From Vezdaea acicularis (lineage: Eukaryota), in the NCBI GenBank assembly GCA_026025075.1, contig JAPEUI010000033.1, forward strand, positions 62,001 to 126,000: a stretch of DNA of 64,000 nt, given 5' to 3'. The notes under the pieces are model-generated. The model was given only the letters and a program-made list of their open reading frames with translations, had not been told where the DNA came from and searched no databases. Below, one piece after another: positions 8,201 through 62,286 of this stretch. Both the position numbers and the translations under genes were made by a program. How positions within the stretch are numbered: the first letter of the stretch is position 1; each line of letters begins with the position of its first letter.

Positions 8201-10467
8201 GTAACCTTACTCTAATCGTATGCTACAGCACACCTTTACACAGCTCAAACGCAGCGTCTCGGTAACTCGATATCTTGCCACAAGTTTGTTCGCCTCGGGC
8301 ATACCGTCAGGCCAGGTGTCTGAAGTCTGAGGCGTCCATATCGTGTCCGTGTTCAGGAGGCAAGCTCCTGTGCGTATCGTGCAACGCGTCACCCACCAGC
8401 CAAACAACCCCAGTACATCCAGAAGTGCCCCCAAGTAAAGGGCTGTGCTCCTTCTCCTCCACACTCAGGTCCTACTTACAATCCTCGGGCCAATCCGTAC
8501 CAGATTCCCCCTCCTCCCTCCATTGGCCACAAGAATCATAACAGAACCGTGGCGCCCCACCACGCCCATGTTGACGTGCGGAAACGTCAACAGGATTCCC
8601 CTCGCAGCAGAACATCTGCATCGGCAATCGCTGCAAAGCGCGCCATGCATCGCCCTTGTTTTCGTGCGCGTCCTCGCGCCTCCACCCTCTGGCCCAGTCC
8701 TGGCTGTTTCTCGTCCCAATCCGGACGCCAGAAGGAATCTGTCACAAATCGTGGCTTGCCCTTATCCCCTTCGGGCCTTTCACTACTCTCGTTTTGAGAT
8801 CTATGGGGCTACCCAAGGTACCCCGCTCAGACGCCATCGATTCGCGCGAGGGTGCAAGCTCTCTGCTTCTGGCGTTTTCCTTTCCTCTCGCTGGCGCTTC
8901 TTTCGCTTTCTCTTTTGTTCTTGCTTCCACAAGCACCAGAGGCTGCATGGGTTCATGCCGGCTTTTCACGCTCTACACTTGTACTGCTACTGCTGCTGAG
9001 TCTGCTTCTTATCGATGCCCAGACCTATCATCTATCAGCTGACAACACGCGTCGTTGACGCCGGACCCCACCCCTCACTCCACACACTCTCTCACGAACC
9101 TCATGCCCCACCGACGAACTCCTCGACCACCCACGCCCCACCTCTGCTAGGTCCCCAACGCGTCTGTAAGACACTCTCTCCCATGCTAGCATGGACTCAA
9201 CGAGTGGACGAAGAGAGGACAGGAGTGTCGAGACCCAACAACCACACAGACCTCCCATCCATCCCCTTTCCCCTTCCCCAAACCCCAAAAAGTCCGCAGC
9301 ATCCACACCGCCCCTCTAAGCCCGCACCCCATACTGTGAAGCCTACCATCACCCCTCCCCTCCCCAACAACCACCCTCACCCCTCAAACCAGCCCTCACT
9401 AGACCGCCGAGGCCTTGGGTCCTAGCACCGGTCGCGTGGACAGGAGAAACTCTCGCCTCGAGCTTTTGAGAATGAGTGCTATTTAATAAGTCCTAGGTTA
9501 TATGCGAGATATCGTGGGTCTTCTGGGACGGAGGTGGGGGTTTGTGTTTGTGTATGATAGCTAGAAACGGAGGAGCAGACGTTGTCCATCCGAGGAAGTG
9601 TGAGAGGGAAAAACTAGGGAGGAGAGAATACACAGGTGGATGCCCGTTCGGACCACGCGCCAAGGGAAAGGGGAAGGAAGGAGGGAGAGAGAAGATCGTC
9701 AAGGCGCTGTATTCTATATTTTTGTAGGGATTCACATTGTATAGACAGAGATTTGGTGCTCAGGACACCTACTTTTGTAACGAAGCTGCAAAGGCGTCAA
9801 ACACCTACACCTGCACGCACACTTTTCAGCCCCGCAAGCCATAGCCCAACTCTCCAAGCGTCCGGAACCCGCGCTTACCCGCCCCGCCATTAAATTTTCC
9901 CAACACATCACTTCACGAGTATGATTTATCAACTCGCCGCGCTCGCCGGATGGGTGGAGATGGTGAGGTATGATGCCGCGAATATATTTGTGCAATGATG
10001 GTGCCATCAATGTTGTATTGTCCTCCTACAATCACAAAATCGTGTAGTGATTTACGTGGTACAACCAGCCAAAGAACCAAGGGATGCCAGAAATCTGAAA
10101 TGTGAGGGCGTGTCAACTTGAACTGGTAGTCAAAAACGCTGGCGTTGCTCTGCATGCGGCTTGTATATAAAGCCTGCTGAGCGCGATAGGGATTCTTTGT
10201 GGTGGGTTTGGTTGGTTTGCGGTATTGGGGAGCTGGGAGGAGGCGCATTTTCATAGGTGTACGAGTACGGGTACAACGCTTGTAGCTCGGAATGGCGTCA
10301 TGTGTAGAGGGTCGCCCACTTTTGGGGGGGTGCCCCTGCGGGTAAGTTTTAGGTACAGAACGATAATGGTTCCCCACTGAAGCTCCTGGTCTCCGTTAGT
10401 CTTTTCCAGGCCCGGGACTATGATATTCCACCGCCTGAATCTCCCTCTTCCCGCCCCACGCTCTTGC

Positions 10468-13747: not shown

Positions 13748-15569
13748 ATGCTTTATTACGGTCTCTTCTTTTCTCTCATAGCGACCACATGGTCGCGAGA
13801 CATACCGCACCCTGAGCATCAACTGTTAGCCCGAGATGTTCCTAATCCCCTCAACTTTGCGCCGAATCAACGTTGGTGAGGATGTTTCGATCTGACAAAA
13901 CTATTTGACCACCACCACTAACCCTTGTAAGGGAGGGAGACGATGGCTCCTGGTCTACATTTGACTTACGCGTTGGGACACCTAATCAGATTGTGCGGGT
14001 TCTGATCTCAACGGCTGGGCAAGAAACGTGGGCTGTCGTGCCTACAGGCTGCACTGGAAGTGCTAAGAGCCCTACATGTGCTGCGGACAGGGGCAACCTC
14101 TTCAAGACCAACGAATCATCTACATGGCAAGCGCGAGGCACGAATCTGATAAACATTGAGGCTAATCTCAATTTCTCTGCGTTTGGTCAATATGGCCTTG
14201 ATACAGTCGGCTTTGGTGACAGTCCACCTGATGGCCCTTCCCTTACCAATCAGGTTGTGGCAGGAATAGGGACAGTAAAGCAGTATTTAGGCGTGTTTGG
14301 TATTGGTCCCAAACCAACCAATTTCACAAATTTCACAGATCCACAGCCTAGCTTTTTCTCAACCCTTAAAGACCAAGGGAAGATTCCGAGCCTATCTTGG
14401 AGCTACACTGCTGGAGCCTCCTATCGTAAGAAACTTGAAGGACACTCTCAGCAAGCGATATTTGGCTCTAACACTATTTAGGGGGAACAAAGGTGCCCGG
14501 AAGCCTTGTATTTGGAGGCTATGATCTTGCACGATTTACCCCGAGCAATTTGAGCATTCCATTTGCCGCAGATACTTCTCGAGATCTTGTCATTGGACTA
14601 CAGTCTATCACTACGAATTATTCCGGCGAGGTTACACTTCTCTCTTCTGGTGTGTTGACTTTCATCGACTCGACTGCTTCACAGATATGGCTTCCTCAAA
14701 CTGCGTGCGATGAGTTTGAACGGTTGCTTGGATTGACCTGGGACCCAAGTAATGAAATATATCTCGTCAACGATTCACAGCACAAATATTTACAAGCGAT
14801 AAACCCTTCCTTCAAGTTTCAGCTTGGTACTACTATCTCTGGTGGTGAGACAATCGATATTATTCTCCCTTACTCGGCATTTGATCTCACTGCCAGTCCT
14901 CCATTTGCCTCCAACACAACCAAATACTTCCCTATCAAACGGGCTGCAAGCGACGCCCAGTACACGTTAGGAAGGACTTTCCTCCAAGAAGCGTAAGTAT
15001 TCGAGGCAGGAGTCCTTATTTTCCTTATCAATAGCTTACGAAGGGTTAGGTATCTCATTGCTGATTACGAGCGCGCTAACTTCTCGATTTCACAATGTGA
15101 TTTTGGTCAGGGTAAAGCTCAAAACCTCGTTACGATCCCATCTATCAATGCTACTTCCACTCCCTCACCTACTGGAAAGAAAGCCCTAAGTACTGGTGGT
15201 ATCGTTGGTATTGTGGTCGGGATAATCGTCATCTGCCTAGCTCTCAGTGCGGTGAGTTGGACCTTATGGCGACGTAACAAAGCAAGCAGTTATAGCCCGC
15301 AACCTTCATCAACAGCGACCAATAGCGGAGAAGATGAGCTGCTGGACGGCCAAGCTGTATCGGAAGCTCATGGCCAGTCACCTGCACGAGAGGTGGATGG
15401 CCACGATGCTCGTGCAGAGGTCGCAGGCCAAGCAGTGTCCGAATTACCCCATCGCGAGATGCACATGCTGGCTGGAAGTGAGATGGAGTACGCTGAATTG
15501 CCAGGTGCACCAGTAAAGGGACCTGACATTGAAATCCGAGAGGGCCAGGCTTCGCCTTCGGCCACTTGA
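13748..15569 (+). CDS. Membrane-anchored pepsin-like (A1) aspartic protease homolog, probably catalytically inactive; 4 exons
   Basis: Signal peptide MLYYGLFFSLIATTWS; WEGDDGSWSTF..VGTP..VLISTAG (first catalytic DTG replaced by STA); IPSLSWSYTAGA; GSLVFGGYD; IDST; YTLGRTFLQEAYL..DYER; TM helix GGIVGIVVGIIVICLALSAVSWTLWRR; cytoplasmic tail with EL[P]-type repeats. Confidence 0.85.
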
Positions 15570-38775: not shown

Positions 38776-41571
38776 CTAAACAGTCGGCACTCCATAATTC
38801 TCGAAGATAGGACCGCCGTCCATGATCGTCGATAACATCTCGTCGTCCATGAAGAACGTGCTGAAGTCCCCGGCCGGCGTCGTGTCAAAGCCAGGAGGGA
38901 ACATTCCATAGTCAGTTCCGAATATTTGTGAACCGGTAGGGTTCACAATGCCAGGCTGGCCTTGCATGCCCATTCCGTACGTTCCAGCCATATTCGATGT
39001 GTCCAAGCTACTTGACCAAACATTATTGTATCGGCCTTTTCCTATCGACCCATCGACTCCATTGGAATTACCCATTGCAACTTCGCTAAGTAGTTGCAAT
39101 GGGGTGTTTGCTGTCCCGTAATCTTGAGCGTTTTCGGCGGGTTGCCCATTCTGGTCCAAGTTGTTGCTGCCTTGACTGTTTGTTAGCTGGAAAGCGGAAG
39201 CTGGTCGACTACCATCACCTTGGCCTTCCTCTCTTGGGCATCTTCCCGTCCCACAGCCATCTTTCTGCCTCTGGAACCACGTTCTGAGCATCATGAGCAT
39301 CATGAGGAACCTCGCAGCAGGTCTTGATCGATCTCCATCTGTAGTGGCCTTAAATTTTTCCAAGACGCGCTCGACATAGTCCTCTGCCCTCAGGTCCTCC
39401 TTTTTGAAGATTCCGCTCATTTCTGAATTAGGTATCATGGTAGCGAAGTGCATCTTTATGAGCATGACCATTGTGTAGGTGCAGCGGACGAGATAGAAAA
39501 CCGGCAACGCTCGCATTGTTTTGACATCAAGCGCGATAAGAGTCTCAAAAAGCGTATGAATCGACTTTAAGCAGGTCGATAGCGCTGCAATATGAGCAGG
39601 TGTCAGGCGTTCTCCCTGTCCCACAGCATACCTAAGCGTTTCTTCGGTAAACGGAGGTTTGAAGTCATCAACATTATGGTCTACATGAAGTGCAACTTCG
39701 TGGATGTACAAGTCCAAGTGACTCTCGCACATTGTCAGGGTGGCTAGGAGTTATCAGCTATTGTTATCACAGAGAAAGGAGAATACCGACGTTCGTCCAA
39801 ATGTTTGGGTGACAAAGCTTTCCAATGTTCTAGATCTTTCTCGAAGCCTTTAATCTGATATTGAGTTTTGGGATCGGAGAGTGTCACAGTGGCAAAAGGA
39901 TCATCCATTGAGAACTGGAACGCAACCTGTTCGGCAATCTGTTGTCCTCTCACTAATTGGCATAAGAATAAATCCGAAGTCACCGAGTCGCTGGATGTTT
40001 CCAACACATCCGTACACTCCTTCAAGTAATTGGTCCAGGTAAGCAAATGAGGCCTCCGCATGTGCACCGCAACACTTCCTAAGGTCAGCAAGGCAATAAG
40101 ATTCAAGACGGACGACCTACTTAGAACATAAGAAATAGACTGCTAGCCATAGCCGCCGAGAGCCCAAAGTGGCTGGATCTGGCAATGCGAACATTTTTCT
40201 TGAATGATATTGTGAGGCTACAGCAGGGTGACGAGCCTTAAGGGGCTTGTATTTCTTGAAGATACCTAAGTCGATCGCCATAGACATGGCCATATGCGTA
40301 AGCTGATAGAACTTCAGCTGTTCGTAGTGTTCCGGTGGCCAGTACCATAGAACTGAAATCAACAAAGCCTGAAGAAGTTCGATGCTCTTTTCTCCATTTC
40401 CAACGACACGGTCGCCGAAGATATTCATGATTTCCTTTGTCAAAGACCTTTGGAGGTCTGGATATGAAACACTTGCGCCGACGGCAATGATTGACAGGAA
40501 AAGAATAGGTTTGGTTTTTCGAATTTCTCCTGCAGTCATATCTGGGGTGAAAACTATGCATGGGAATAGAGGTCCCATTTTCTCGACAAAGTAGTTGAAG
40601 ATCGTCGTTGCAGTTTCGGAAGAAAGAAGGCCGCGATCGATCACATCCGTATAGGGACTGTATGGTACCTTGCTTGGACCTGGAACAGAATCTGGCGTGA
40701 TCGATGGACCTGTAGCAGATCGTGGTGTCTTCGGCATTAAGAAAGGATACACGACGGCCGAATCGTCCTTCGCAGTTATAGGCGCGTCCATAGCAGCCAT
40801 TGTACCTTGCTGCCTCGTTGTTCCTTTGATTGGCGATCGTTGTTGGTTATCTTGTGGGCCGTTTTCTTCAGATAGCCTCCGCTTTCGGCCGGCAACTGAA
40901 GTAGTTGGAGCCGATCGAAGGGCCGGATTGTCGTGCTTAGAAGTAGTCGTATACTGCTGCTGTCGCAACCATTCGCCTGTCTCACGATTATTCTCTATTG
41001 GAGCGGAGCCGTAGCGATCGAGCACTTCGTCGTAATCAGTACCCTCCCGACTATATTGGTTGCTATCGCTGTCTCGTCGATTCTCTCCGGCTTGAGTTGC
41101 GTGCAAGCTTGCCGTCAGAGCATCGATCTTCTTTTCGAGTTCAGCAACACGACTATCAGTCTTCTTCTGACGTTTGCGACTTGGAACTGTCACAACACAA
41201 TCTCGTCCAGCTTTGGCGCATCTACGGCAGGGACCATCTGGGTTCTGAGAATTTGGATCGCAACGGACCTTCAAGCCTCGACAAGCTTCACACGCTCGAG
41301 GACGCTTCGCATCATTAGGGACATTCGGATCGGATTGATTCGACTCTGAGGGAGGTAGTTCGTAATATGGCGATTGCTGCTGTTGTCGTTGCTCCTGTTG
41401 AGATTCATCGGGCAGAGCTGGTGGCAAGCCGGAAGCGGAGGGCACGGTAGCATGGGGCCGGCCAGCACGCAAAGGATTTGTTCCGAGAGATCTTGATGGG
41501 GGCGGTGGAGGAGGATAGACGCTTTGTTGTGGGCTGGTATCCGTGGATCGCAGTCTCGGATCAATCTCCAT
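38776..41571 (-). CDS. Zn(II)2Cys6 fungal transcription factor; 3 exons
   Basis: RACEACRGLKVRCDPNSQNPDGPCRRCAKAGRDC zinc cluster followed by a coiled coil (SRVAELEKKIDALT) and a middle homology region (KPILFLSII..GEKSIELLQALL..RRLWLAVYFLC). Confidence 0.92.
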
Positions 41572-42316
41572 CGCGGGCCGTCATGAGCTCAATGACGGTG
41601 ATGTGAAAGTTGGGGACATCGGTGGTTGATTGAGGCCGTAGACCGATGGTAACTCACGAGGAACCAATGATTTTGGAGCTAAAAGGACCAGATCGGGCTG
41701 TCTCCGCGTCCGCTCATGGTCTCCCGTCTAACGGACCGGGTGGGAGCGCCAGTAACTTTGGTCAGAAATCAAGCAGAGTTTCGCGTAGGGGAAGCTCCCG
41801 TCGGGGAGAAGCGGTCTTGTTCTCGCCGAGTCCCCGATTCACATTACCATGCCTCTACGCGGTGAAGTCACTACAAGCAAGGCCCATGGGTTGTCGAAGA
41901 GGCAAGAAAATCTTGACTAGCTGAGGATATGAATGTTTCGACTCACTCTAGTCTTATATAGATCCAAAGATTACTATCAATGCAGTTGCAGGGACTACAA
42001 TACTCCCCAAATCTGTCGTAACGATCTTGGGCAAGCGAGAAGCTCATTGGTCCATGCCTGCGTCGACTTCGTATTACGCGTCCTTGGAAAGTCCAACGGA
42101 GCACTTTGAACCCCGAAGTCTAAAGGGAAATCTGCTAAATTCCACAACAAATGTCGTTAATTCTTGATATAAGTTAGCCTATTTTAAAGAAGCCATAAAA
42201 CCATCGGCAGAAATCTGCGATCCACAGCTTCGGCTTCAATCACTCGAAGCGGATACCCTATAGTTGTTCTGGCGACACGGACACAACACAAAGGTAAAGG
42301 GAGAGATACGGCCAGA

Positions 42317-49287: not shown

Positions 49288-50110
49288 TACGGTAGAAGTA
49301 TGCTGCGAGGGGATTGTTCGGAGAGAAGTGAACTTCTCCGGAAGCACTATTCATATACTCTTCCGCTCAACTACGACCAAGAATACCTATCGTCAAGGAG
49401 TCGCAGCCAATGAAATGTCTCCGAAGTTTAACCGAGTTTGCGAAGGGGAGGTATGAGGTATGCGTATACCCATATGCATATGGGGGGTCATAAGTGTTGT
49501 ACATTCGCGAAATTCTACCTCCCACATTAATCATGCCCTAAGCACGGCGATTAACGAATCCATTCGTAAGAAACCTATTTCACAGATTACCTAGGGAGGT
49601 CTCCGATATATCGATTGAATAAATGCCCCATCGAGTGCAAGCAGTTCTTGATTCCTGGGTGTTATACCATATATTAGCGGTCTCGTGAATGTCCTACAAT
49701 TACGACCCCCCACTGTATGATCAGGCAGAACTCAACGAGGTCTAGACGCAGGCTATATGCAGAAATGAAGCAATAGTAGCGAATAAGTATTGTCGGAGGC
49801 AAATCCATATAAGTCCATCAAAGCTACCTGTGCAGTTTCCTTATGGGCCAGATTATGGGGAACCTTAGCATAGGGCATGCGAGAACAGTCCGCCGAATGG
49901 ATATCGGAGCTACCATACGACGACATAAACAGCTAGAATAAGTATTTTGCTATAGGAGCCTTCTAGTGTGCTCGAGTAAGTCCTGTAACTATACTACCAC
50001 TTGACAATTGTCCTAAACTCAGATAAATTGGTAGACAGCGCTGTATAGGAGAGAACCCAAATCATGGAAGGTGGATAGGGAGGCCAGCATCATCAAGGTG
50101 GTAGGAAAGA

Positions 50111-51450
50111 TCATAGCAGCCTAACCACCGCTTCTTGTCCATATAATACCGGCCAATGCAAGGCCGTCTCTCCGTTACTATTCCCCGTCTGTTTACTGGC
50201 CCCTTTCTCTAGCAACAGCTTGACCACCGCTTCGTGCCCAAGATCGGCTGCTGAGCGCAGTGCTGTCCATCCATTGTCATCCACTGCTTCGATCTCAGCC
50301 CCCTCCTCTAGCAACAGCTTAACCACTGTTGAGTGCCCATGACGGGCTGCTAAGTGTAGTGCTGTCCATTCATCATAACCTACTGCTTCGATCTCAGCCC
50401 CTTTCTCTAGCAACAGCTTGACCACCGCTTCGTGCCCAAGAATGGCTGCTGAGTGCAGTGCTGTCCATCCACCGATATCTGCTGCTTTGATCTCAGCCCC
50501 CTTTTCTAATAACAGCTTAACCACTGCTGAGTGCCCATGACGGGCTGCAAAGTGTAGTGCTGTTCATCCATTGTCATCCACTGCTTCGATCTCAGCCCCC
50601 TTCTCTAGCAACAGCTTGACCACCGCTTCGTGCCCAAGATTGGCTGCTGAGCGCAGTGCTGTCCATTCATTGTCATCCACTGCTTCGATCTTAGCCCCCT
50701 TCTCTAGCAACAGCTTGACCACGGCTTCCTGCCTGTATAAGGCTCGGCCGACGCAGGGCCTTCTCTCTAATCCTCTTTGCTCTGGCAATGGCAAATTTCT
50801 CCAGCAAACGCTTGGCCGTGGCTTCGAGCCCAAGCCTATGATAGCCTACTGAGTACAGCATTGTCGATCCGGTAGCATCTACATCTTTGATTTTGGCCCC
50901 TTTCTCCAGCAACAACTTGACCACGGCTTCGTGCCCACGATAGGCTGCCCTGTCCAGCGCTCTCCATCCCCGTCTATCCTCTGCTTCAATATTGGCCCCA
51001 TACTCCACCAACAGCTTAACCACGGCTTCATGCCCTTGCGCGGCTGCTTTGTGCAGCGCTCGCCATCCAATGCCATCCACCGCTTCAATTTCAGCCCCCT
51101 TCACTAGCAGCAGCTCGACGACGGCTTCATGCCCATTCTGGGCTGCCTTGTGCAGCGCTCGCCATCCATCGGCGTCCGCTGCTTCGATATTGGCCCCCCT
51201 CCTCAGCAGCAGCTTTATCAAGGCTTCATGCCTCTTCGTGACTGCCCAATGCAGCGGTGTCCATCGAATGCTATCCACCACTTCGATATTGGCTCCGTAT
51301 TCCACCAGCAGCTTGACCACGCCTTCATGCCCACGATAGGCTGCTATTTGTAGCGCTGTCCGTCCACCTTCGTCCTCCGCTTCCATGTTAGCCCCCTTTT
51401 TTAGCTGCAGCTTGGTAGCTTTCACGTTTCCGTCAATAGCTGCCTGGATT
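50111..51450 (-). repeat. 99-bp ankyrin coding tandem repeats
   Basis: Units such as ccactgcttcgatctcagcccc..tctagcaacagcttgaccaccgcttcgtgccca recur at 99-bp intervals and are nearly identical in 50200-50730. Confidence 0.85.
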
Positions 51451-52309
51451 AACGCTGTCCCCAGATTGAATTGATTCCCCCCCCTATTATACATTTTATT
51501 AGCCAGTATTTCATCGACAATCAACGTATGCCCGTTTCTGTCGGCTGAATTTATCAAAACATCGAGTTCATTTGAAGTAACATTATTGACACCACTCGGA
51601 AAGCTCAGCAGCAGCCGGAGGACATGTACGCAACCATAACGTGCTGCTATATTAATTAGAGATCGATTCAAGATATCTCGACAGCTACCTTGCGCTATCT
51701 TCATAATTTGATCCGAGAATAAGATTGTTTTATTTGATTGAAATAGTCGAAAAGGCGATAGTGTAACTAAGAGAGCGAGGGATGGATCAATTTTCCAACG
51801 AGCGGCTACCGTCAAAAGTTTTCGGTCCGAGATTTCAAATAGCCTGAGAAGGGTTTTTTCCGCTTCAGCAGGCTCCGGATGATTGTACCAGGAAAGTCCA
51901 TCATGGAGAATCATGCACTCTTGATATTCCTCAGCGGCAGCGTAATCTCCAACATTTTCAGAAAGTTGTGCCAGCGTATAACAATCGGAGATCGAATTAT
52001 CATCTAAGAAAGAAAACGGCTTTTGCACATTGGAGAGGCGTTGATGAAGAAGGAGAGCTGTTTGATGTTTTTTGGCGGTTTTCAGCAATTCAAGTTGGAC
52101 TCGGCCACTTTCAATTGCGATGTCAAGCGCTAAATGAACATTTTTGGCAAAATCATCCGGTATCCGCCAATAGTATTCCACGCAATTACGCTCTTTGTTC
52201 TCAGCAAGGTCTTGATAACGTCTTGAGAGCCTACTCAGATAACCTAAATCTTCCAGGCTTTACTAGGTGGTGAGCTTGTGGTTGAAAAAATTACTGAACT
52301 ACTCACTTC

Positions 52310-52464
52310 TTTTCTATTGTCTTATCCTTTAAACATTCTATAGGGCTGAGGCTATCATCATTTTGCTTCTCTATTGTCTTATGCTTCAAGCATTCAATAG
52401 GGTTGAGGTTTTTATCATTCTGTTTCTCTATTGTCTTATGCTCTAAGCGTTCTATAGGGCTGGG
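52310..52464 (-). repeat. 57-bp (19-aa) coding minisatellite, about 2.7 copies
   Basis: SPIERLEHKTIEKQNDKNL / NPIECLKHKTIEKQNDDSL / SPIECLKDKTIEK. Confidence 0.8.
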
Positions 52465-52813
52465 GTTGTCATTATCCTGCAAATATTTCTTCTCCTCTGC
52501 TTTTTTCGACAGATTTTCTGAACATGCGTAGTTGAACTTTTTACAACGATCGCAGCGGTCTGGCCATATCCTTTCTGTAGGCACGCACTAAAAAAGGATT
52601 AGCCGTCAATGTTAAAACCGTAAATAACTGATGACTTGACCTTCTGCCGATCATAGCGACACTTTGAACACTTAAGAAAATTCAACACTGGAGCTTTCTT
52701 TGGCCGTGGCATGTTGAGTTGAATGGATAGGTTCAGAGCAAAAGCATTTCAACAAAAGCACAAGCTATAAGTTGATTGTCAAAAAGCCCCCTCGTCAGAA
52801 AATTGTTACATAG

Positions 52814-53078
52814 TGTGAGGCAGAGGCGTACGAGCAGGGAGCAGACTAAGCCGTATCCGGCGCAGCGCAAGCATCACTCAGGGGAGTCACTAAAGGTATC
52901 AAGAAGTATAGAACATAGTAGCAGTCAATGAATACGTCTATGTGGATTGTGTATTGAATGCTGGGGAGCCATGCCTCAGCGCTTCCCCGCATTCTTAGCT
53001 ACTACGGTGCGTCACGTGACTCAAGCCTAGTGCAGGCATAACGCAGGCTGCGATCACGGGATGGGTACGTTCGTGACA
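52814..53078 (-). repeat. 3' LTR (265 bp)
   Basis: tgtgaggca...gttcgtgaca; I count 4 mismatches against 61292-61556. Confidence 0.95.
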
Positions 53079-53093
53079 ACTACCCCCTCTCCT
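53079..53093 (-). other. Polypurine tract
   Basis: The minus strand reads AGGAGAGGGGGTAGT immediately before the 3' LTR. Confidence 0.8.
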
Positions 53094-53475
53094 ATGGCTG
53101 CGGTCCCCGCAGACTTATGCTAGGGTTCCTTTCTACTATATCCGCTGCTAGCATCTTATGCTAGCTTTGGCGTATGCTAGCTATTGAAGCTAGATTCATC
53201 TCAATAAGTACTGTAGGCTGCCGTCTCAAAAGGCGCTCAGAAGAAGAGCAGGCCTTATTGTCGATTGCTGCGGCTCTATTGTTCTTTGTATTGAGATGCA
53301 TCTCCTTTGTTTCAGGTTGGACAGGGGTCTTTTTGGTGTTTCCTGAGCTCCTCAAGACTAGCTCAAGCTTCACTCGAGCAATAGTCCTGAGAGATCGTAT
53401 GCCTCATGACGAAGAGTTATGAACTCTCACTTCGCCGTCATGTCATTGCTTTGTGGGACCTTCTGCCGTCCCGCC

Positions 53476-53482
53476 TATATAA
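53476..53482 (+). promoter_or_regulatory. TATA box of the antisense cargo gene
   Basis: TATATAA followed by a CT-rich leader, about 120 bp upstream of ATG 53598. Confidence 0.55.
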
Positions 53483-53597
53483 GGCAGCGGCTCCCCCACT
53501 CTTCTTCGTCCAACCTTCTTCCTTTTTACACCTTGCTGGTGTCCTTTTCTTTGCCCTCTGCTTATAGCTTAATCAAGCTATAATCAAGCTCTTTACT

Positions 53598-55415
53598 ATG
53601 TCTCGCATTTGTCCTCCTAAGGATGCACAAGTGCCCTTCAAGAAAGGAGTCGTGCCTAGTCGGCTTGCCAATCCGCCTGAGATGACTCGTCAGGTCTGCC
53701 TCAGATGCATGAAGAGGGTTGACCAAGATCCTGGGGCCAAATGTGCTCGTCTCACTCCATTGACAAAGTGTACCTACTGTCAGGAGTTCAACCATCTTTG
53801 CCATGACGTGAGTATCCTTTGATTCTCTCACGAGCTCAGCTGTAATGACTGTATTAGCCCCTAGCTTCTATCAAGTCTTTTGGGATGAATAAGGGGTAAG
53901 GAGACTAGCTTTGCTTCAGCTTCGCTTCTGCTTCGCCTAGCTCTCTAGCACCTAGCATAAGGCCAGGTGGTTCTTAGATCACCTGACATAGACGAGCGTA
54001 GCTATTAGAGCTGCCGCTTTCCTTAGGATAGCTCTTCAGCAATCAACTCATCTATTCATCTGAATAACTAGTAGGAAGACATCCTCGCTTTGCTTCGTCT
54101 GACCCTTCTCTTATCTTGCCTTGCCTCGTCTTACCTCGCCCCAGTTACTATCACTGCACCTAGTCTTCGTCTGCAAGTTCTCGAGTCCTTGGGAGTTAGC
54201 TCACACGCCTACAGATCCTTGCTCCCTGACAAAGCACTGGCCTGTCCTTACATCAGCTAATCGCTCATAGGTTCCGGTCTCTTATGTCGCTATCGCCAAC
54301 AAACTCCTCGAGCATGCTAACGTCTTGTGGGGTATGGGTGAGTAGCTCTAGGATACCTCATGAGTATAGCTTGCTAACGCTCTGAGTTTTAGGTCCCGAT
54401 CATCCGCGATACAAGGACGGTCAGGCTCTTTTTGTAAGAACGCGGTGGCATCCGTCTTAGGCGCGCCGACGCGCCCTAGACGGCTGCTCTTGCTTAGACG
54501 CCGACGGCGCTCAGGGGGCGCTTAGTCAGCGCGCCCCTTACATATATACCAAGTCGGTCCCGCTGGGGACGCGGCATCGAATAGTCTTGACTCATAACTA
54601 GTTCTTGGAATCTATTCATGTAATTGCAGTCTACTCATTATATCGCTATACCGCTACATCTATATAGCCCTGTGACACTGCTAGCTATCGCCGGCGGCCC
54701 GCCTACTCCGATAGCCTATTAAACACGCAGCAACACTGCAGGCGGACCGCAGACGGCGCCGGCTTACCACGCTCTCAGAATCAGAGGCAGCTATTGTGCC
54801 CGTCCTTACATTTTTGGCTCACAAGACGGCTATCTTCGCCAAGGACGTTGAGGCATGGCGCAAGGCCAACGATCCAACTCGCAACACCCAGGACGAGGCT
54901 CAACGTTCACGAGATGCCACTCAAAAGGGTATTCGTCTGGCTCTCGAGGCTCTTGTTGACGTTACTTGATATATTGTAAGTGCTCCTTTTCAAACCCAAC
55001 TCTAAGGCTACTCTTGAGTTAAGCCTGCTAACTCTTCTTCTAGGCCCGCCTCCCGTCTCTTCCTCTTGGCCGCTGGTTCGAAGACGACGAGTATGGTCTG
55101 AACTGAAACTACTTCTTTGAGGGTCGCGATCAGAACGGCACTCCTATTTCCGGAGTTGAGCCCATGGACCCGCCTCTCCCTACAACCTTGGTGGTGAGAA
55201 CTCCAAGACGCAGTACCTTCTTCCTTTCTGGTCCTGATCCCCCCGCGCTTGCCTTCAGCTCCGATTCTGCTTCCGGTTCTGACCCTTCTGGCCTGCCCAA
55301 AGTGACGAACTACGACACTAAGGACCCGGACAACAATAGCGGAGAGGACGAGAACGCCGAACTGGACCCCGCCGGGGCAGCACGTCGTGGCTTCTCTTCC
55401 GTCAATTATCAGTAG
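53598..55415 (+). pseudogene. Retrotransposon-internal antisense gene encoding a variant six-Cys zinc-cluster protein (damaged copy)
   Basis: Exons 53598-53807, 54271-54337, 54393-54975 (minus the nested solo LTR) and 55044-55415, with gtgagt/gtgagt/gtaagt donors and ctaat/ctaac branch sites. Translation: CLRCMKRVDQDPGAKCARLTPLTKCTYCQEFNHLCHD|VPVSYVAIANKLL..M|GPDHPRYKDGQAL[LTR]LAHKTAIFAKDVEAWRKAN..VT*YI|ARLPSLPLGRWFEDDEYGLN*NYFF..VNYQ*. Confidence 0.72.
54432..54810 (+). mobile_element. Nested solo LTR (379 bp)
   Basis: Termini TGTAAG...CTTACA; flanks tcttt/ttttt (degenerate TSD in a T-run). Shares blocks with the reverse complement of 60497-60899 (catcgaatagt; cgcagacg; ccacgctctcag; ttgtgccc..ccttaca). 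Confidence 0.8.
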
Positions 55416-55826
55416 GCACTCAAGGGGCAATCAAGCTCTTGCCGGCGTTAGGGACACAGCGTTTGGTAGCTGAAGGGCTTGCCTTTGGTGTAGGATGGCG
55501 GAGATCGGACAGATTGAGCAACAGGCTCTAGACTTGCGTTGCTTTCCTTAGATAGACTCAATAAAGATGATCTATTTTATGACCTGACCTCGCGTGATAC
55601 CCTCTCAATTGACTCGTAGTTATGCCCTATGCGTTGAGCTGCTCTGCCTCGTTAAAACTGTAAAAACCTATGTAGGAAAACCAGAAAGAGTGCAGACAGT
55701 CTCATGCGTGGCTGCTGAGTGTCTCGCAAGTAGGGCTTGAGCGTGTCTTCTTCTTCAAGATATCCATTGTCTTCCAATGTCTCCAGGGTTCTTCAAACCC
55801 CTACGGAGCTCCTTAAGCAATAAGGA

Positions 55827-58800
55827 CTATGTTGCGACACAATTGCGTCTCTGCCTAGGCTTCCGTTGATGCCGTTCCTCAGTAAGCTTATTTGCTTTGG
55901 TAGGATAACGCTCATGAAAGTCTGAGACTAGCTTGCGCAACGCTTGAGTGATATCTAGCTCAGGGGCTGATAGCCATTCATTCTCAAAGTTGCCTCTATC
56001 CTCTTACGAGACTAAGTACTTGAGCTTCCCGTAGTGAAGCTTACTGTCGAGGACCTGTCCTACGACTAAGTCATCGTCGCTGAGGACACGCAAGAGTAAA
56101 GCCCCAGCATCGCTGCGGTCCTTGCCAGCCCTATAGGGCTCAAGTAGGGAAACATAGAATACGGGATGGATCTTGGTTCCCTCAGGGAGGCTCAGGCGAT
56201 AAGCCTGCTCCCCTATTGCGTCTACTATGCGATAGGGCCCATAGTACTTGTAATCGAGCTTTTTCGAAGGTCTCGCAGTACGTATGTTCCTACCCGATAG
56301 CCAGACCATATCATCAATGGCATAATCCATCGGCTTATGCTTTGCGTCATAGTACTCTGCTTGCTTAGCCACTGCCTCTTCCCACCTTGCCGTGAGCTCC
56401 TTTCGCAGCTTGTTTACTGCATCGAGCCTCACATTGACCGCAGGGAGATTGCAGGCTTCTCTCGAGAGCTCATCACCCGTGTTAGGGTGCTTGCCCCGGA
56501 CAGCATAAAAAGGGGTCATTCCCGTTGTACTATGCACGCTATTATTATATGCAAACTCTGCACTCGTGAGCTACTCAAGCCAGTCATCCTGCTGGTAGTT
56601 GACGTAGCTTCGGAGATACTGCTCCAGAGTTTGGTTCTGCCGCTCAGTTTGGCCGTCTGTCTGAGGGTGGAACGCGGTGCTTAATCGTTGCTTGATTCTC
56701 AGTTGATAGCAGAATGCTAACCAAAACTTTGACGTGAATTGGGTACCCCTATCCGTCACAATAGACATTGGGACCCCATAGTCCTTCCAGATGCGCCGGT
56801 AGAACAAATCTGCCAGGCCAGCCGCATTCAGGCTCTTTTGAGTTGGTATATACATGGCCATCTTTGATAGTCGATCGACCACCACCAAGATGACATCGTA
56901 TGAGTGACCCTTGCGTCCAGCAGAAGGCAAGTCAGTGATGAAATCCATCGTGAGGTCCTTCCACACCCCCTGAGGTGCGAGAAGCAATTGTAGCCGCCCG
57001 TGGGGCTTATGCCTGATTGCCTTACTCCTCGCACCTGCGTTACACGTGCAAACATACTGTTTGATGTCTCTAGACATCCCCGGCAAGTAGTACTTGCGAC
57101 GTACTAACTCCAGCGTACGCAGATACCCAAAATGACCCGCGTGTGGATCGTCGTGGTTGCTCCGCATAGCTTCCCCTCTTGAGGGACTCGGGAGGTACGC
57201 TTGAGTGCCATGATATAGCACACCACCGCTGACATTCCAGTCAGGGTCATCTCCCCTGGGTGGCATCTGCAATGCTTCACCTGCGCCTCCTTGAGTCTCC
57301 GCAGAGACTAAGGCAAGACGTTGCTCTCTCGTAAGACTTAGGAAGGTTATCAACCCCTGAGCAAGCTCATCGTCTTGCTGGAGTCTTGCGATAAGCCTGC
57401 AAAACTCCAGAGTAGGGTCTGAATACGCATCTTCGGTTTTCGCGCTTTCTCTCACCTCGTTTAAAGGCACCATGTGCCTTGACTTACGACCCCTAGAGAG
57501 CATAACTGTAGCCATTAAACGCAGGAAGTATGTAGCATTATTCGCTACTATGTTATCTTGCGTCGTTTCCAAATCAGGCTCGAACCGCAGGCCTGGCTCT
57601 GATGTAACGCTTGCTACACTCAGGCGCGCCTCATCCCCTAAGAGACTTCCACCATCCTGTTCGAGAGCGGCGGCTTCTTGCCTAGCACGCTCCTCGTAAT
57701 CAGGCCTCCGGGATGGCGCATCAGCCGGATTGAGCTTTCCCGCTCTATAGGAGATATTCAGGTCTAACGCTGATAATATCTCCCACCAGCGCGCATATTT
57801 GCCCCTAAGAGTCTTTGTACTCAGGAACGTCCGCAGATTGGCATGATCCATTAGGCAGCGTATAGCATGAGTGGCTCCTTTTAGATAGTGGCGCCACTGC
57901 TTACAAGCCTCAACGATCGCCAGCATCTCGGCGTCCCCTACGCCGTAGTTAAGTTTGGCTTCTTTCAAGCTCCTGAACCAGTACGCGACAGGCCGCCAGT
58001 GAGCTTGAGTGTCTTCTGAGTTGCTCTGGGATAGAATCCCAGCAATAGCATACTTGAACGCGTCCGTCTCAAGTTTTATTGGCAGCGCAGGGTCAAAGTG
58101 CCTTAAGATAGGAGCACTGGTAAAGCAACGCTTCAGCTCCTGGAAAGCCGCTATGGCTTCATCGGACATCACCAGCGTCTGACCTGTGAACTTCCCCTTT
58201 ACCGATCCTCGCAGCAGCTTGTTCAGCGGGCGCGCCACCTGAGAGTAGCTTGCGATGAACCTGCGGTAGAAGTTAGCAAACCCTAGAAAGACTTGTATGT
58301 CTTGATGGGTCTTAGGGGTAGGCCAGTCTTGGATCGTAGCTATCTGGCTTCTCTCCATCTCCACTCCAGCTGGGCTCACGATGAACCCTACGAAACCAAC
58401 CTGCGTCACATAGAATTCACATTTGTCAAGCCTCGCAAAGAGTCTATACTTCGACAAGCGTGAGAGGATCCTGCGTACATGCTGAGTATGCTCAGCGCAA
58501 GTATTCGAGAAGATCAGTATATCATCCAAATATGCTATGCAAAACACATCTAGGAAGTCCCGCAGGACGTAGTTGATGTAACTTTGGAAGGTAGCAGGCG
58601 CATTAGCTAGGCCGAAAGGCATCACCTTATACTCGTAGTGGGCATAGCGTGTGCAGAAGGCCGTCTTCCATTCATCGCCCTCCTTGATCCTAATCAAGTT
58701 ATATGCAGAGCGGATATCAAGCTTGCTGTAGAATCTAGCTCCTACAAGCCTATCAAGCGCTTTGCTGATGAGGGGCAGGGGATATCGATTCTTAAACGTA

Positions 58801-59702
58801 ATCCGATTTAGCCCCTAATAGTCTACACACAGCCGTAACGTCCCATCTTTCTTCTTGACAAAAATGATCGGGGCTCCCGCAGGGGAGGAGCTGGCTTGAA
58901 TAAAGCTCTTCGCAAGATTCTCGGTGATATACTCCCGCAGAACCTTGAGCTCAAGATTTGATAGGGGGTACAGCGGCCCAAACGGCGGCTGCTGCCCCTG
59001 AGTATCAATTGCGTGGTCTTGGAGGCCATGAGGAGCCAACTCATTTGCCTCTTCTTCGGAGAAGACTCGCTCATAGTCAGAGTACTCCTCCGGGAAAGAG
59101 CTGCTCACGGTCGTCCCCCAGAGAACTCCTGCTTTGCTCCCGCTTGCATCTTGAGTGACAATAATCTGGTATGGACGTAGATCTTCCTCACTGATGCACG
59201 CAGCAAACGCGATAGGATAGATCACGTCGATTGCATTCGGCGTGCCCTCTGAGAGGCTCTTGCGCCAGGTCAGCATTCCATTTGCCCAACGAATGTCCGG
59301 GTCTCGCTCTTGAAGCCATGTTATCCCTAGTATGAGATCACAGCCCGTAAAGCTAGCAGCTACATAGCTGTCCGTGTGTCGCTGGGTCTTTCTATTGCTG
59401 TCCGTGACAGAGGTTTCAATGTCATGAGTCTGATAAGTGGACATGACATGTCCGCTCAGGCTGCGTATACCATGAGGGGCGTCTGAGTGACCCCTGAGCC
59501 CTAACTCTTTCACTTTTAACTGCGATATAAAGTTAAGAGAGGCTCCTGAATCGATCAGAGTGTTTACTTGAGTCTCTCGTGAGTTACTCATGCGCAAAGT
59601 GACTGGTATAAACATCGTTTGAGCTCCCATATGAGCATTACGGGTCAGTAGCACAGAAGCCACGTCTACGACCCAGACCCTTTTACTCGACGGTCCTGTC
59701 AC
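55827..59702 (-). pseudogene. pol: pol polyprotein (protease, RT, RNase H, integrase, chromodomain) with in-frame stops
   Basis: ORFs 58815-59702, 56571-58697 and 56004-56537 are in one frame. Motifs: LIDSGAS; LRLCVDY*GLN; VMPFGLANAPATFQ; YLDDILIF; LETDA; HDDPHAGH; MDFITDL; TDRGTQF; DGQTERQNQTLEQYL; GPYRIV; chromodomain YLVS*E..NEWLS..FHERYP. Confidence 0.93.
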
Positions 59703-61231
59703 GTTTCAGCTAGCCATTTGCGGCATTCCGAGCGATAATGGCCCTTCTTGCCGCAGTGATGGCAAATGGCATTCTTCTTACGCTCTACCGCTAAGGGTAT
59801 CGGGCGTGAAGCTGGAGGGGAGGCTGCGTAGGCAGTCTTAGGAGGTTCGGCGTTAGCCCTCGTGGCAACAGTCTCCTTCTCAAACGTCTTGCGTTTGTAA
59901 AAGGAATAACCCTTGCGATGAGAACTATGACTCTCATGAGCAGCGCTTGATTTGAACTTGCGCAGCTCCTGCTCCCTGGCTTCATAATGAATTGCCAGCG
60001 CAATGGCAGCTTCTCTGGTCTCGGGGAGTATCCCAGACCTAAGGACTTTGCCCTGTAGCGATGGTCTGAGGGCGGCAATGATCACATTGCGTCAAATGGG
60101 CTCCGGCATTAGAGGCATGCATGATTTGTAGTCGTTGATGGCCTCGACAAGCTTGACTACCGTGCGTCCCTCTTGCTTGACGCTGCGCCAATCCTTGAGA
60201 TCACGCAGCTCAGCGTTAGCATCAGTCGTAAGGAGGCGTCGGAGGTACGTCATAAAGTCCTCCCATGTATGGCTGTCTCCCTTTTCCGCGAACCTCGTTC
60301 ATGCCGCTTCAGCGGTGCCCTTGAGCTTCGCTTGCGCGAAGAGAATCTTCTTCTCGTCTCTGGCAAAAAAGGTAGGGCGGGCCTTGAAGCAGTTCTTCAA
60401 GGCTCGTTCCCATTCTCGTAGCTCTTTGTGGCTGCCCCCCTTATAGTTCTTGACTTCAGGGAGGGGCATATATTTCTCGTCGTCGGTCATCGTCTTTGTA
60501 AGGGTGGGCACAAGCTCTGCTCCTATACTGAGAGCGTGGCAGGCGTACGACGTCTGCGTCTTGCCTGCGGCAAGGAGGCGTACGCTCAGCGATGCATACG
60601 CGGGCTACGGTAGCTAGATATAATGATATGCTTCGCATATAATGATATTCGCCTGATTACATGGGGCGATATAGAGATAATGGGGTCATATAGATATAAT
60701 GAAGTTTCGTACGATCTAGCTATGGCATATGATAGTAAACTATTCGATGACGAGCCATCAGGGTAGCGCCATCGGCATATATAGGTAAAGGGGCTCGATC
60801 AGCGCTGCCCCTGGGCTAGGCCCTAAGCGGCGCTCATCTCGCTTAGCCCGCCCTAGCGCCGCTGGCGGGCTACCGCGAAAGCCACTGCGGCGTCTTACAG
60901 TCTTCTGGCGCTTGGCTATGCTGAGGTCAGAACTAGACAGCATAAGTCCATCTTGAGTGTCTCCTGCGGGTGCTGCTATGCCTTCCGCAGTAGTAGGAGG
61001 ATAGCCCTCTCTGCGTAACCGCAAGAGTCGCTCAAGCTTCCGCCTGGTCTCAGCTTCTTGGGCCTCTGCTTCCATTGCCTTCACCATACGCTCGCGAGTT
61101 GTAGGCGAGGTAGTTCTAATGATCTCTGCGTCACTCATGATAGACTCCTGATCCTCCTCGCTGGGAGTATGAGCGACGCCAGTAGTGCCCGACGACTCCT
61201 CCACTGGTGCTGAGCTTCCTACGTCGGCCAT
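59699..61231 (-). pseudogene. gag: gag, interrupted by a solo LTR and two stops
   Basis: ORFs 60758-61231, 60299-60511 and 59699-60085 share one frame. Removing 60497-60904 restores AKRQKTMTDDEKY. Motifs TWEDFMTYLRRLL and zinc knuckle CHHCGKKGHYRSEC. Confidence 0.88.
60497..60899 (-). mobile_element. Nested solo LTR (403 bp) inside gag
   Basis: TGTAAG...CTTACA termini with a perfect GTCTT TSD (60492-60496 and 60900-60904); excision restores the gag reading. Confidence 0.9.
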
Positions 61232-61233
61232 AC

Positions 61234-61269
61234 TGCTTATTCTGCCGGCTGCTTATTCTGCCGGCTGCT
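61234..61269. repeat. 16-bp tandem duplication in the retroelement leader
   Basis: ctgcttattctgccgg x2. Confidence 0.7.
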
Positions 61270-61278
61270 CAAGGATAG

Positions 61279-61289
61279 AGCATTTAATA
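61279..61289 (-). other. Putative self-priming primer-binding site (Tf1/sushi type)
   Basis: Minus-strand TATTAAATGCT, 2 nt inside the 5' LTR boundary, is complementary at 10 of 11 positions to minus-strand AGCATTCAATA at 61440-61430 in the LTR. No TGG tRNA-type PBS is present. Confidence 0.7.
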
Positions 61290-61291
61290 AT

Positions 61292-61556
61292 TGTGAGGCA
61301 TAGGCGTACGAGCAGGGAGCAGACTAAGCCGTATCCGGCGCAGCGCAAGCATCACTCAGGGGAGTCACCAAAGGTATCAAGAAGTATAGAACATAGTAGC
61401 AGTCAATGAATACGTCTATGTGGATTGTGTATTGAATGCTGGGGAGCCATGCCTCAGCGCTTCCCCGCATTCTTAGCTACTACGGTGCGTCACGTGACTC
61501 AAGCCTAGTGCAGGCATAGCGCAGGCTGCGATCACGGGATGGATACGTTCGTGACA
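61292..61556 (-). repeat. 5' LTR (265 bp)
   Basis: Direct repeat of 52814-53078, followed by the CATAG TSD. Confidence 0.95.
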
Positions 61557-62286
61557 CATAGCAACACAAAAATAGAGTGCCTTTCACGACAAATGGCAGA
61601 ATCATGTTTGAGTTGATATTGTAGATAGTTTAGAATAAGATTTAATGAGGATGATCAAGTAAAAATAACGAATATATACAATGAGTTGTGTGCGTATTAG
61701 TATACGCAGGCAATAGACTAGTCTTACAGTAAGTCGAAGCTGTGGTCAAGATTGATGGAGCATAAGCGACGGTTCTTCACAACAAAAGACCACAGGCTTG
61801 AAGGCACAAAACGCCGTCACAAGGCCACGGGCATGGCGCAGAGCATGATACTGCAAAAAGAACAAAGGTTTACTACTTTAGAGCTCATACCAAAAAGAAT
61901 TACTACGAAATTGCTGACAATCTTTGAAATTTTGAGAGTAATGTACGTTGGTGGGTAGATATGCCACGCATGCCCACTGCTCGCTCATGCGCCATCAATT
62001 TTGACCACAGCTTCGGCTAGGCTCCTGGCATCTCACCTTGCACCGTTCGGACCTTAATCCACGCTGTGCACCCTCTCGCGCTCGGAACGAGGAGAAAAGT
62101 TCGTAGCTTAACAACAACGAAAGGCCGTTCTACCATGGCCTTCTCTTGCTATTGCAGTACTTATCATTTATATACCGAACTCCCTTCGCCCAGACTCTGG
62201 ATTAAAAAATCTCCTCACATGCCAAAGTTTAAGATAAGTTACCGGAGCCCTCCTATCCCCCTAATAGCTCTACATAGTCCCACAAT

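Follow-up and report, generated by a model that had tools for sequence, protein, structure and literature searches.

The stretch of DNA considered here (64,000 nt of Vezdaea acicularis, NCBI GenBank assembly GCA_026025075.1, contig JAPEUI010000033.1, positions 62,001 to 126,000; hereafter, the window) harbors on its minus strand a Ty3/gypsy retrotransposon which, judging by homology, carries an additional gene on the opposite strand. The element spans 8,743 bp including both long terminal repeats (LTRs) and is represented in the window by one copy. Its 3' LTR (52814-53078, minus strand) and 5' LTR (61292-61556, minus strand) are each 265 nt long, have TG..CA ends, and share 98.5% identity (4 mismatches/265); the target-site duplication (TSD) CATAG found beside the 3' LTR at 52809-52813 recurs directly outside the 5' LTR at 61557-61561. 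The pol gene (55827-59705, minus strand, with the final stop TAG at 55827-55829) shows Pfam matches to aspartic protease, reverse transcriptase (RT), RNase H, integrase zinc finger, integrase core, and Tf2-type SH3 domains, in this order and in a single minus-strand frame. The gag region (59699-61252, minus strand) displays weak zf-CCHC matches and several in-frame stops, and its CCHC knuckle (59699-60091, weak Pfam match) lies in a frame other than that of pol. The pol stop and the 3' LTR are 2,748 bp apart (53079-55826), and a repeat search in this interval revealed no nested insertion. The antisense gene resides entirely in it, with a start about 0.5 kb internal to the 3' LTR, from where it extends toward the pol terminus. 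Its placement within the LTR pair and the TSD, in a gap of about 2.7 kb, was proposed in a preliminary description of this DNA along with a TATA box and an ATG on the opposite strand, and all of these features were recovered.

In the exon model of the antisense gene (all its features are on the plus strand), the candidate promoter element TATATAA (53476-53482), read from the sequence, precedes the ATG at 53598 by 116 bp. Exon 1 (53598-53807), delimited by homology, encodes 70 aa from this ATG, including the pattern C-x2-C-x11-C-x8-C-x2-C-x6-C exactly as described previously, and is followed by a GTGAGT donor at 53808. The predicted intron 1 (53808-54270, 463 nt, GTGAGT...CTAAT...CATAG) was recognized by the gain in the score of the family hidden Markov model (HMM, see below) upon splicing. 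Exon 2 (54271-54337, 67 nt), also placed by the family HMM and bordered by a GTGAGT donor at 54338, opens with the P-x-x-aromatic motif typical of the family, directly after the sixth cysteine. In the best-fitting model, intron 2 (54338-54778, 441 nt, family HMM) leads to exon 3 (54779-54969), which codes for a helical region supported by BLASTP and the family HMM and ends in the TGA at 54967-54969. The product of this model is 155 aa long up to this TGA, i.e., of the same length as the related protein P0001. Further downstream, splice signals delimit a possible last intron (54976-55043, 68 nt, GTAAGT...GCTAAC...CTAG) and a possible last exon (55044-55415) encoding a Pro/Ser/acidic tail with the TGA 55104-55106 in frame and the TAG 55413-55415 at its end. 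This last intron could be used only if the TGA at 54967-54969 was once a sense codon.

The score of the family HMM increases from 47.7 bits for exon 1 to 62.0 bits with exon 2 and to 76.3 bits with the third exon starting from 54779. Lower scores were obtained for the third exon starting from 54731 (65.1 bits) and for a five-exon model with a 55-nt intron (54338-54392), a 41-nt mini-exon (54393-54433), and the next exon from 54742 (62.4 bits). The middle boundary is, therefore, ambiguous with three in-frame acceptors (54731, 54742, and 54779), of which the HMM prefers the last one; two candidate introns with a GCTAAC branch site are present, with several in-frame acceptors downstream. As a minimum, this homology-guided model supports intron 1 and a second intron located between exon 2 and the helical exon. 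As to the four exons with canonical splice signals proposed initially, the GT..AG signals (GTGAGT at 53808 and 54338, GTAAGT at 54976) and the terminal TAG are in place, but the frame to 55415 is not open, being broken by the TGAs at 54967-54969 and 55104-55106. It is uncertain if the tail (55044-55415) belongs to the gene: P0001 stops at the same point as the TGA 54967-54969, and another relative, P0002, possesses an acidic tail, to which the tail exon of the window showed no similarity by BLASTP. A single comparison with the tail of the protein encoded in the same slot of a related element (L010, see below) returned a weak similarity (BLASTP E=0.003). The ORF (open reading frame) 55008-55430 on the strand opposite to this tail has no Pfam match, and nothing more emerged from its translation.

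An exhaustive phmmer search with exon 1 against 1.84 billion protein cluster representatives returned only two matches, P0001 (155 aa, E=1.8e-5) and P0002 (172 aa, E=1.7e-4). They are hypothetical proteins from metagenome-assembled genomes (MAGs) of the lichen-forming ascomycetes Vezdaea acicularis (KAI9852189.1) and Pleopsidium flavum (KAI9873706.1), respectively. A profile of these two proteins added a third one, P0003 (185 aa), and all three share the cysteine spacing followed by the P-x-x-aromatic motif and helices. By BLASTP, exon 1 matched residues 1-70 of P0001 (1e-13), and the ORF 54742-54966 matched its residues 113-154 (E=4e-6) collinearly with exon 1; the comparisons of exon 2 (22 aa) with P0001 and of exon 4 with P0002 were not significant. 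The family HMM built from P0001-P0003 and run over the 2,880 six-frame ORFs of the window ranked exon 1 first (8.4e-14) and the ORF 54742-54966 second (E=0.25). Based on this homology, the antisense gene is considered to be real, though decayed by now, and to belong to a small unnamed family of lichen-forming ascomycetes. No known family was recovered with Pfam from any candidate exon, even at E<=10, or from P0001-P0003, and longer proteins, searched by word index with exon 1, yielded no match. DUF3716 (PF12511) was tried as an assignment and rejected: it was suggested by a cluster at 0.78 in the Atlas, 28% of whose members carry DUF3716, and gave no match in Pfam.

The search for the same arrangement elsewhere was based on 43 loci (L001-L043) with a related gypsy pol, found by pol alignment search of bacterial and archaeal genome records and yielding 9,452 six-frame ORFs; exon 1 alone, used as the query in these records, found no relative. 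Although filed under bacteria or archaea, the loci carry a eukaryote-type gypsy pol, four of them (L011, L023, L024, and L033) on contigs of 187-446 kb, and look like mis-binned eukaryotic contigs in MAGs. The family HMM found two relatives of the window gene among the 9,452 ORFs, L033 14603-14920 (minus strand, E=1.6e-6) and L011 14161-14970 (minus strand, E=1.7e-3). Both keep the x11-x8-x2-x6 register, with some of the cysteines replaced by tyrosine, and proceed to the P-x-x-aromatic region. Both are situated antisense between the end of pol and the 3' LTR of their elements, i.e., in the same slot as the window gene: the L011 element has LTRs at 8136-8428 and 15185-15477 with pol extending to 13663, and the L033 element has LTRs at 8318-8580 and 15049-15311 with pol extending to about 13700.

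A loose six-cysteine (Cys6) pattern, C-x2-C-x6-13-C-x5-12-C-x2-C-x6-8-C, was also applied. In the window, it selected two of the 2,880 ORFs, namely exon 1 and a genuine host Zn2Cys6 factor. In the 43 loci, it selected nine ORFs corresponding to eight distinct ones, since one DNA is present in two overlapping loci, and one of the eight was a low-complexity run in L005. The remaining seven are located on the minus strand in L010 (5245-5898), L020 (6240-6689, with the spacing x11-x8-x2-x6 identical to that of the window), L023 (8961-9224), and L040 (2437-3156 and 9229-9798) and on the plus strand in L011 (16947-17516 and 18586-19011). All seven lie antisense directly behind the 3' end of pol and inside the LTR pair wherever LTRs were found, so Cys6 genes occupy this slot in four further element families besides the relatives of the window gene. 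The share of pattern ORFs in this zone (7/8) compares with 126/1,641 for all ORFs >=60 aa (Fisher p=1e-7); this test was made after the pattern had been seen, and four of the seven ORFs represent one element family, so that counting by families gives 4/5. The gene of L040 is a single ORF of 165 codons whose ATG lies about 40 bp from the 3' LTR boundary on the inner side; its stop and the pol stop overlap tail to tail. A sister copy of the L040 9229-9723 gene in L037 (7011-7328, minus strand) has an internal deletion of about 275 bp, retaining the start and the acidic end and lacking the cysteine cluster and the helices. Overall, 24 distinct pol 3' ends were surveyed: the gene or its deleted form was found behind 10 of them, none was seen behind 11, and the DNA behind the other three was too short.

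The relationships of these elements were estimated by maximum likelihood from the RT-RNase H region, in a quick tree with 54 rows, from which L023 was absent for want of a long enough stretch. The window element pairs with P0005, and both belong to a 13-row clade (support of 99 in the Shimodaira-Hasegawa-like approximate likelihood ratio test, SH-aLRT) which includes the L011 element. In this clade, only L011 possesses enough downstream DNA to judge; L004, for instance, ends 387 bp after pol. The placement of L033, sitting on a long branch, is unsure. The elements of the L010 and L040 types form one clade (SH-aLRT 97) with the gene present in 7/7 rows. On the whole tree, the presence of the gene implies at least four changes, protein-only rows carrying no state. 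As to the proteins, P0003 and the L010 protein encoded in this slot are similar over 123 aa (E=2e-5). When two subfamilies of the L040/L011 gene were compared, the ratio of nonsynonymous to synonymous substitution rates (dN/dS) was 0.33-0.42 at dS of about 0.3; one close pair displayed a dN/dS of 0.75 on 14 changes, and the RT region of the same copies was at 0.18-0.27. These ratios indicate protein-level constraint for the L040/L011 gene family, which is a family other than the window's own.

The typical spacing of the fungal Zn2Cys6 cluster is C-x2-C-x6-C-x5-12-C-x2-C-x6-8-C. The first cysteine loop of the antisense gene comprises 11 residues, and the rest of its spacing fits this consensus; in the alignments, basic residues follow the first C-x2-C as in the Zn2Cys6 family. 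A model of exon 1 obtained with AlphaFold2 (AF2) from a four-sequence alignment reached a predicted local distance difference test (pLDDT) score of about 70 (residues 31-70); each C-x2-C in it marks the beginning of a short helix. In Foldseek, this model had only three matches in the PDB, and all of them were zinc clusters, those of GAL4, PUT3, and PPR1 (E 3.1-9.5). In the AF2 model of P0001 (nine rows; pLDDT 79 overall and 87-94 over residues 31-120), these two short helices are present again, with three long ones after them; at full length, this model had no meaningful Foldseek match in the PDB or among the viral models of BFVD. A sequence search of the PDB with the family profile gave chance helical matches only (E 0.6-2.2). 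The positive control in the same window, the host factor 40120-41580 (minus strand), reached 28.6 bits with Zn_clus and also matched Fungal_trans, and the best Zn_clus score among the same-slot ORFs was E=0.27. The "stretched Zn2Cys6" domain of the preliminary description thus stands as a six-cysteine layout with weak support from the fold but not as a member of the Pfam family Zn_clus; the domain may be called Zn2Cys6-like in layout, with a predicted fold compatible with a zinc cluster. The structure prediction suggested along with it gave helices and PDB matches that agree with a zinc cluster, the latter at E values that are not significant. The host Zn2Cys6 exon at 52306-52587 (minus strand) was rejected as a paralogue of exon 1, as its first loop is of the canonical x6 length and it is part of a host gene with ankyrin repeats.

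The window copy of the element is dead, with three stops in pol (58815-58817, 56571-56573, and 56004-56006, minus strand, as read from the frame translation), several in gag, and one or two TGAs in the antisense gene. Among the matches listed, its closest database relative by pol, P0005, is intact (1,262 aa) and 94% identical to it without gaps over 1,262 aa. Most of the 81 amino acid differences between them (59) correspond to C>T or G>A changes in the window copy, compared with 11 in the reverse direction, nine transversions, and two differences requiring more than one change. CpG accounts for 27 of the 59 directional changes and CpC/GpG for 22. This bias suggests that the internal part of the window copy has undergone directional mutation of the deamination type, in contrast to the nearly untouched LTRs with their four differing sites. 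Both in-frame TGAs of the antisense gene could have originated from CGA or TGG by mutation of the same type. The preferred context here, mainly CpG and CpC/GpG, is not the CpA of the classical repeat-induced point mutation (RIP) of Neurospora.

The reading favored here, with a probability of about 0.6, is that the 2.7 kb behind pol holds a third gene of the Ty3/gypsy element, which travels with the element and would code for a Zn2Cys6-like regulator. The gene would be transcribed from the opposite strand in the direction of the pol terminus, with its start about 0.5 kb internal to the 3' LTR, and its product would begin with a six-cysteine N-terminal domain, continue with three helices, and perhaps end in an acidic tail. 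The cysteine domain would form a binuclear zinc cluster of a Zn2Cys6-like type capable of binding DNA, and this zinc-dependent protein, translated from the antisense mRNA, may act on the element's own LTR, its transcription, or its chromatin. The roles of a transactivator, an integration-targeting factor, or an anti-silencing factor put forward in the preliminary description are likewise putative. If an intron lies antisense to the genomic RNA, splicing cannot excise it from this RNA, and it returns to DNA upon reverse transcription. The introns of the window gene would persist for this reason, being reverse-complemented in the sense-strand RNA intermediate and invisible to the spliceosome. 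This logic, put forward in the preliminary description, is sound and fits the homology-guided splice model but is not general, since the same-slot genes of other lineages are intronless; the lack of introns in the L040 and L010 genes implies that introns are a feature of certain lineages and not the reason for this gene class. A broader proposal is tentative and better regarded as a possibility: that a sizeable part of the fungal-type chromovirus radiation harbors an undescribed third gene class, coding for a small Gal4-like zinc-cluster regulator of the element's own transcription or chromatin. Such a gene would lie antisense behind pol, start at or near the 3' LTR, have introns in some lineages, and make the protein the equivalent in retrotransposons of the accessory regulators of retroviruses.

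Several observations weigh against the favored reading. It may be that P0001-P0003 are ordinary host genes. Nor is the gene universal: the 11 pol 3' ends at which no such ORF was seen have at least 600 bp downstream. Carriage by the elements is read from related elements, the window's own family being represented by one copy. The profile-profile comparison of the window family with the L040/L010 alignment returned a probability of only 3.7%, so the same-slot genes are not demonstrably of common origin and several unrelated captures may be involved; one ancient gene and several captures of similar genes are both possible. The state of the gene in the window copy is uninformative on selection, because neutral decay predicts about 0.5-1 stops in it, as estimated from the stop counts in the pol and gag frames. 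As far as the domain is concerned, Zn_clus (PF00172, curated cut-off 21 bits) was matched neither by exon 1 (E<=10) nor by P0001-P0003, and the Foldseek matches to GAL4, PUT3, and PPR1 were not significant (probability 0.08-0.14).

An unlikely alternative is a one-off transduction, in which this element lineage took up a host gene from a small family of ascomycetes and now carries it without any role for the element. It would agree with the annotation of P0001 and P0002 as plain hypothetical proteins of fungal MAGs and with the position of P0001 in the Atlas beside 157 mostly ascomycete proteins of an unnamed cluster (at 0.92), a sign of a wider family not necessarily borne by transposable elements; moreover, in the plant literature, capture is given as the origin of similar ORFs (PMC4408406, PMC11963269). 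The relatives of the gene in the same slot and strand of L011 and L033, the former with its pol in the clade of the window element, argue against such a transduction, as do the same-slot Cys6 genes of four further families and the purifying selection in one of them. A passive passenger is not expected to recur at one position across lineages. Hence, the gene looks like an element-borne accessory gene and not a one-off capture, as the preliminary description had supposed, except that in the window it persists as a mutated relic with in-frame stops and not as a stable component. Chance ORFs and splice-like signals in a long untranslated region, with no gene at all, would account for the lack of a Pfam family, the two in-frame TGAs, and the ambiguous exon boundaries. 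This explanation is highly improbable and already contradicted by the homology results: the collinear matches to three independent proteins, the gain of about 14 bits in the HMM score per splice, and the top rank of exon 1 among the window ORFs.

It is rather unlikely that the gene is element-borne and its cysteine domain is a zinc module for contacts with proteins or RNA (Gag, integrase, or host silencing factors), or that the antisense transcript itself matters. The failure of Zn_clus, the first loop of 11 residues in place of six, the lack of a solved structural relative for the full-length P0001 model, and the three-helix bundle after the cluster in place of a long coiled coil all speak in favor of a contact module, whereas DNA binding is favored by the fact that the only three fold matches in the PDB are Zn2Cys6 DNA-binding domains and by the basic residues after the first C-x2-C. 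The convergent overlap of the end of the L040 gene with the pol stop would yield an antisense RNA against pol; still, the dN/dS below 1 argues for selection on the protein and not on the RNA alone.

Although the preliminary description rested on the premise that canonical fungal Ty3/gypsy elements encode only gag and pol, a comparable antisense gene, brtn, has reportedly been described by Zhao et al. in 2011 (Virology 417:248). According to later papers citing it, brtn is situated after pol and ahead of the 3' LTR in Boty-like gypsy elements of Botrytis cinerea and also of Sclerotinia, a case overlooked by that premise (PMC7264820, PMC8365987, PMC4227169, PMC5987419). By description, the likeness consists in an extra antisense gene in the same slot of a fungal Ty3/gypsy element. 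Brtn might prove to be the same thing as the cysteine-cluster family of the window; the exon 1 search matched nothing named BRTN among the cluster representatives, a set in which the presence of BRTN is not established.

In plants, the Tat/Retand elements (Grande, RIRE2, Retand) are described as carrying antisense ORFs between pol and the 3' LTR with PMD, PMD plus coiled-coil, or TRP28 domains, which are conserved within lineages and for which a nucleic-acid-binding or regulatory role has been proposed (PMC7264820, PMC11963269, PMC4408406). Their slot and strand are the same as those of the window gene, but they come from plants, are part of the non-chromovirus Tat lineage, and possess unrelated protein domains. 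Besides, the window gene has predicted introns, and the word "intron" is absent from the text of PMC11963269 and PMC7264820 on the plant ORFs. With the Gal4/Put3/Ppr1 type of zinc cluster (PF00172), the window protein shares the six cysteines in two C-x2-C halves, the second being C-x2-C-x6-C, and the modeled helix at each C-x2-C. It differs from this type by the first loop (11 and not 6), the lack of a Pfam match, and fold matches short of significance, as well as by its size of about 155-300 aa without the middle domain of fungal transcription factors and by being encoded inside a retroelement. Human T-lymphotropic virus 1 (HTLV-1) expresses the bZIP regulator HBZ, of established function, from a spliced antisense transcript whose promoter lies in the 3' LTR. 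The window gene resembles HBZ as a small, putatively spliced gene opposite to gag-pol with its start at or near the 3' LTR, its regulator role being only putative; HBZ, for its part, comes from a vertebrate retrovirus and has an unrelated bZIP domain. No literature joining Zn2Cys6 or zinc cluster with retrotransposon and antisense was found in full text, a corpus from which subscription journals are mostly missing. The antisense accessory ORF behind pol is, thus, of a known kind, and its cysteine-cluster family, introns, and recurrence across gypsy lineages appear to be undescribed.

LTR retrotransposons are usually modeled as gag-pol machines relying on host factors for their regulation. If the favored reading is true, a self-encoded DNA-binding regulator in fungal gypsy elements would offer a way to learn how these elements time their expression or escape silencing, and it would explain the 0.5-2.7 kb "spacer" kept behind pol in several lineages. 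There are also consequences for annotation, as such genes would be either masked with repeats or called orphan hypotheticals, so that the lineage-specific gene lists of fungal and lichen genomes become inflated. The antisense-intron principle is employed in engineered retrotransposition reporters, and the intron-bearing version of the gene would represent a natural case of it.

The "chromovirus" label attached to the element in the preliminary description holds as a statement of pol relatedness, but a chromodomain was not detected: the Pfam model Chromo (PF00385) did not match the pol tail of the window or P0005 at E<=1. It is present in most pol relatives at about 50% identity, and the pol tree puts the window element among them. 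At the other end of the element, the minus strand right after the 5' LTR (61262-61291) lacks the usual TGG start of a tRNA primer-binding site. The gag leader (about 60300-60760, minus strand) has an N-terminal ORF beginning just inside the 5' LTR; between this ORF and the recognizable gag, there is an AT-rich, stop-filled stretch which could stem from decay, an insertion, or a sense-strand intron.

The window genome is fungal, the neighboring ORFs encoding a factor with Zn_clus and Fungal_trans domains, a cyt-4-type RNB protein, an amidase, a histone deacetylase, and sugar transporters. On the minus strand, a host gene (50691-52712) has its ATG (52712) about 100 bp from the insertion site of the element, which lies upstream and may have an effect on the promoter of this gene. 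The first two exons of the host gene encode a canonical, intron-split Zn2Cys6 cluster (C-x2-C-x6-C-x9-C-x2-C-x6-C), and its body is composed of ankyrin repeats, which correspond to the 99-bp tandem repeat family at 50098-51490.

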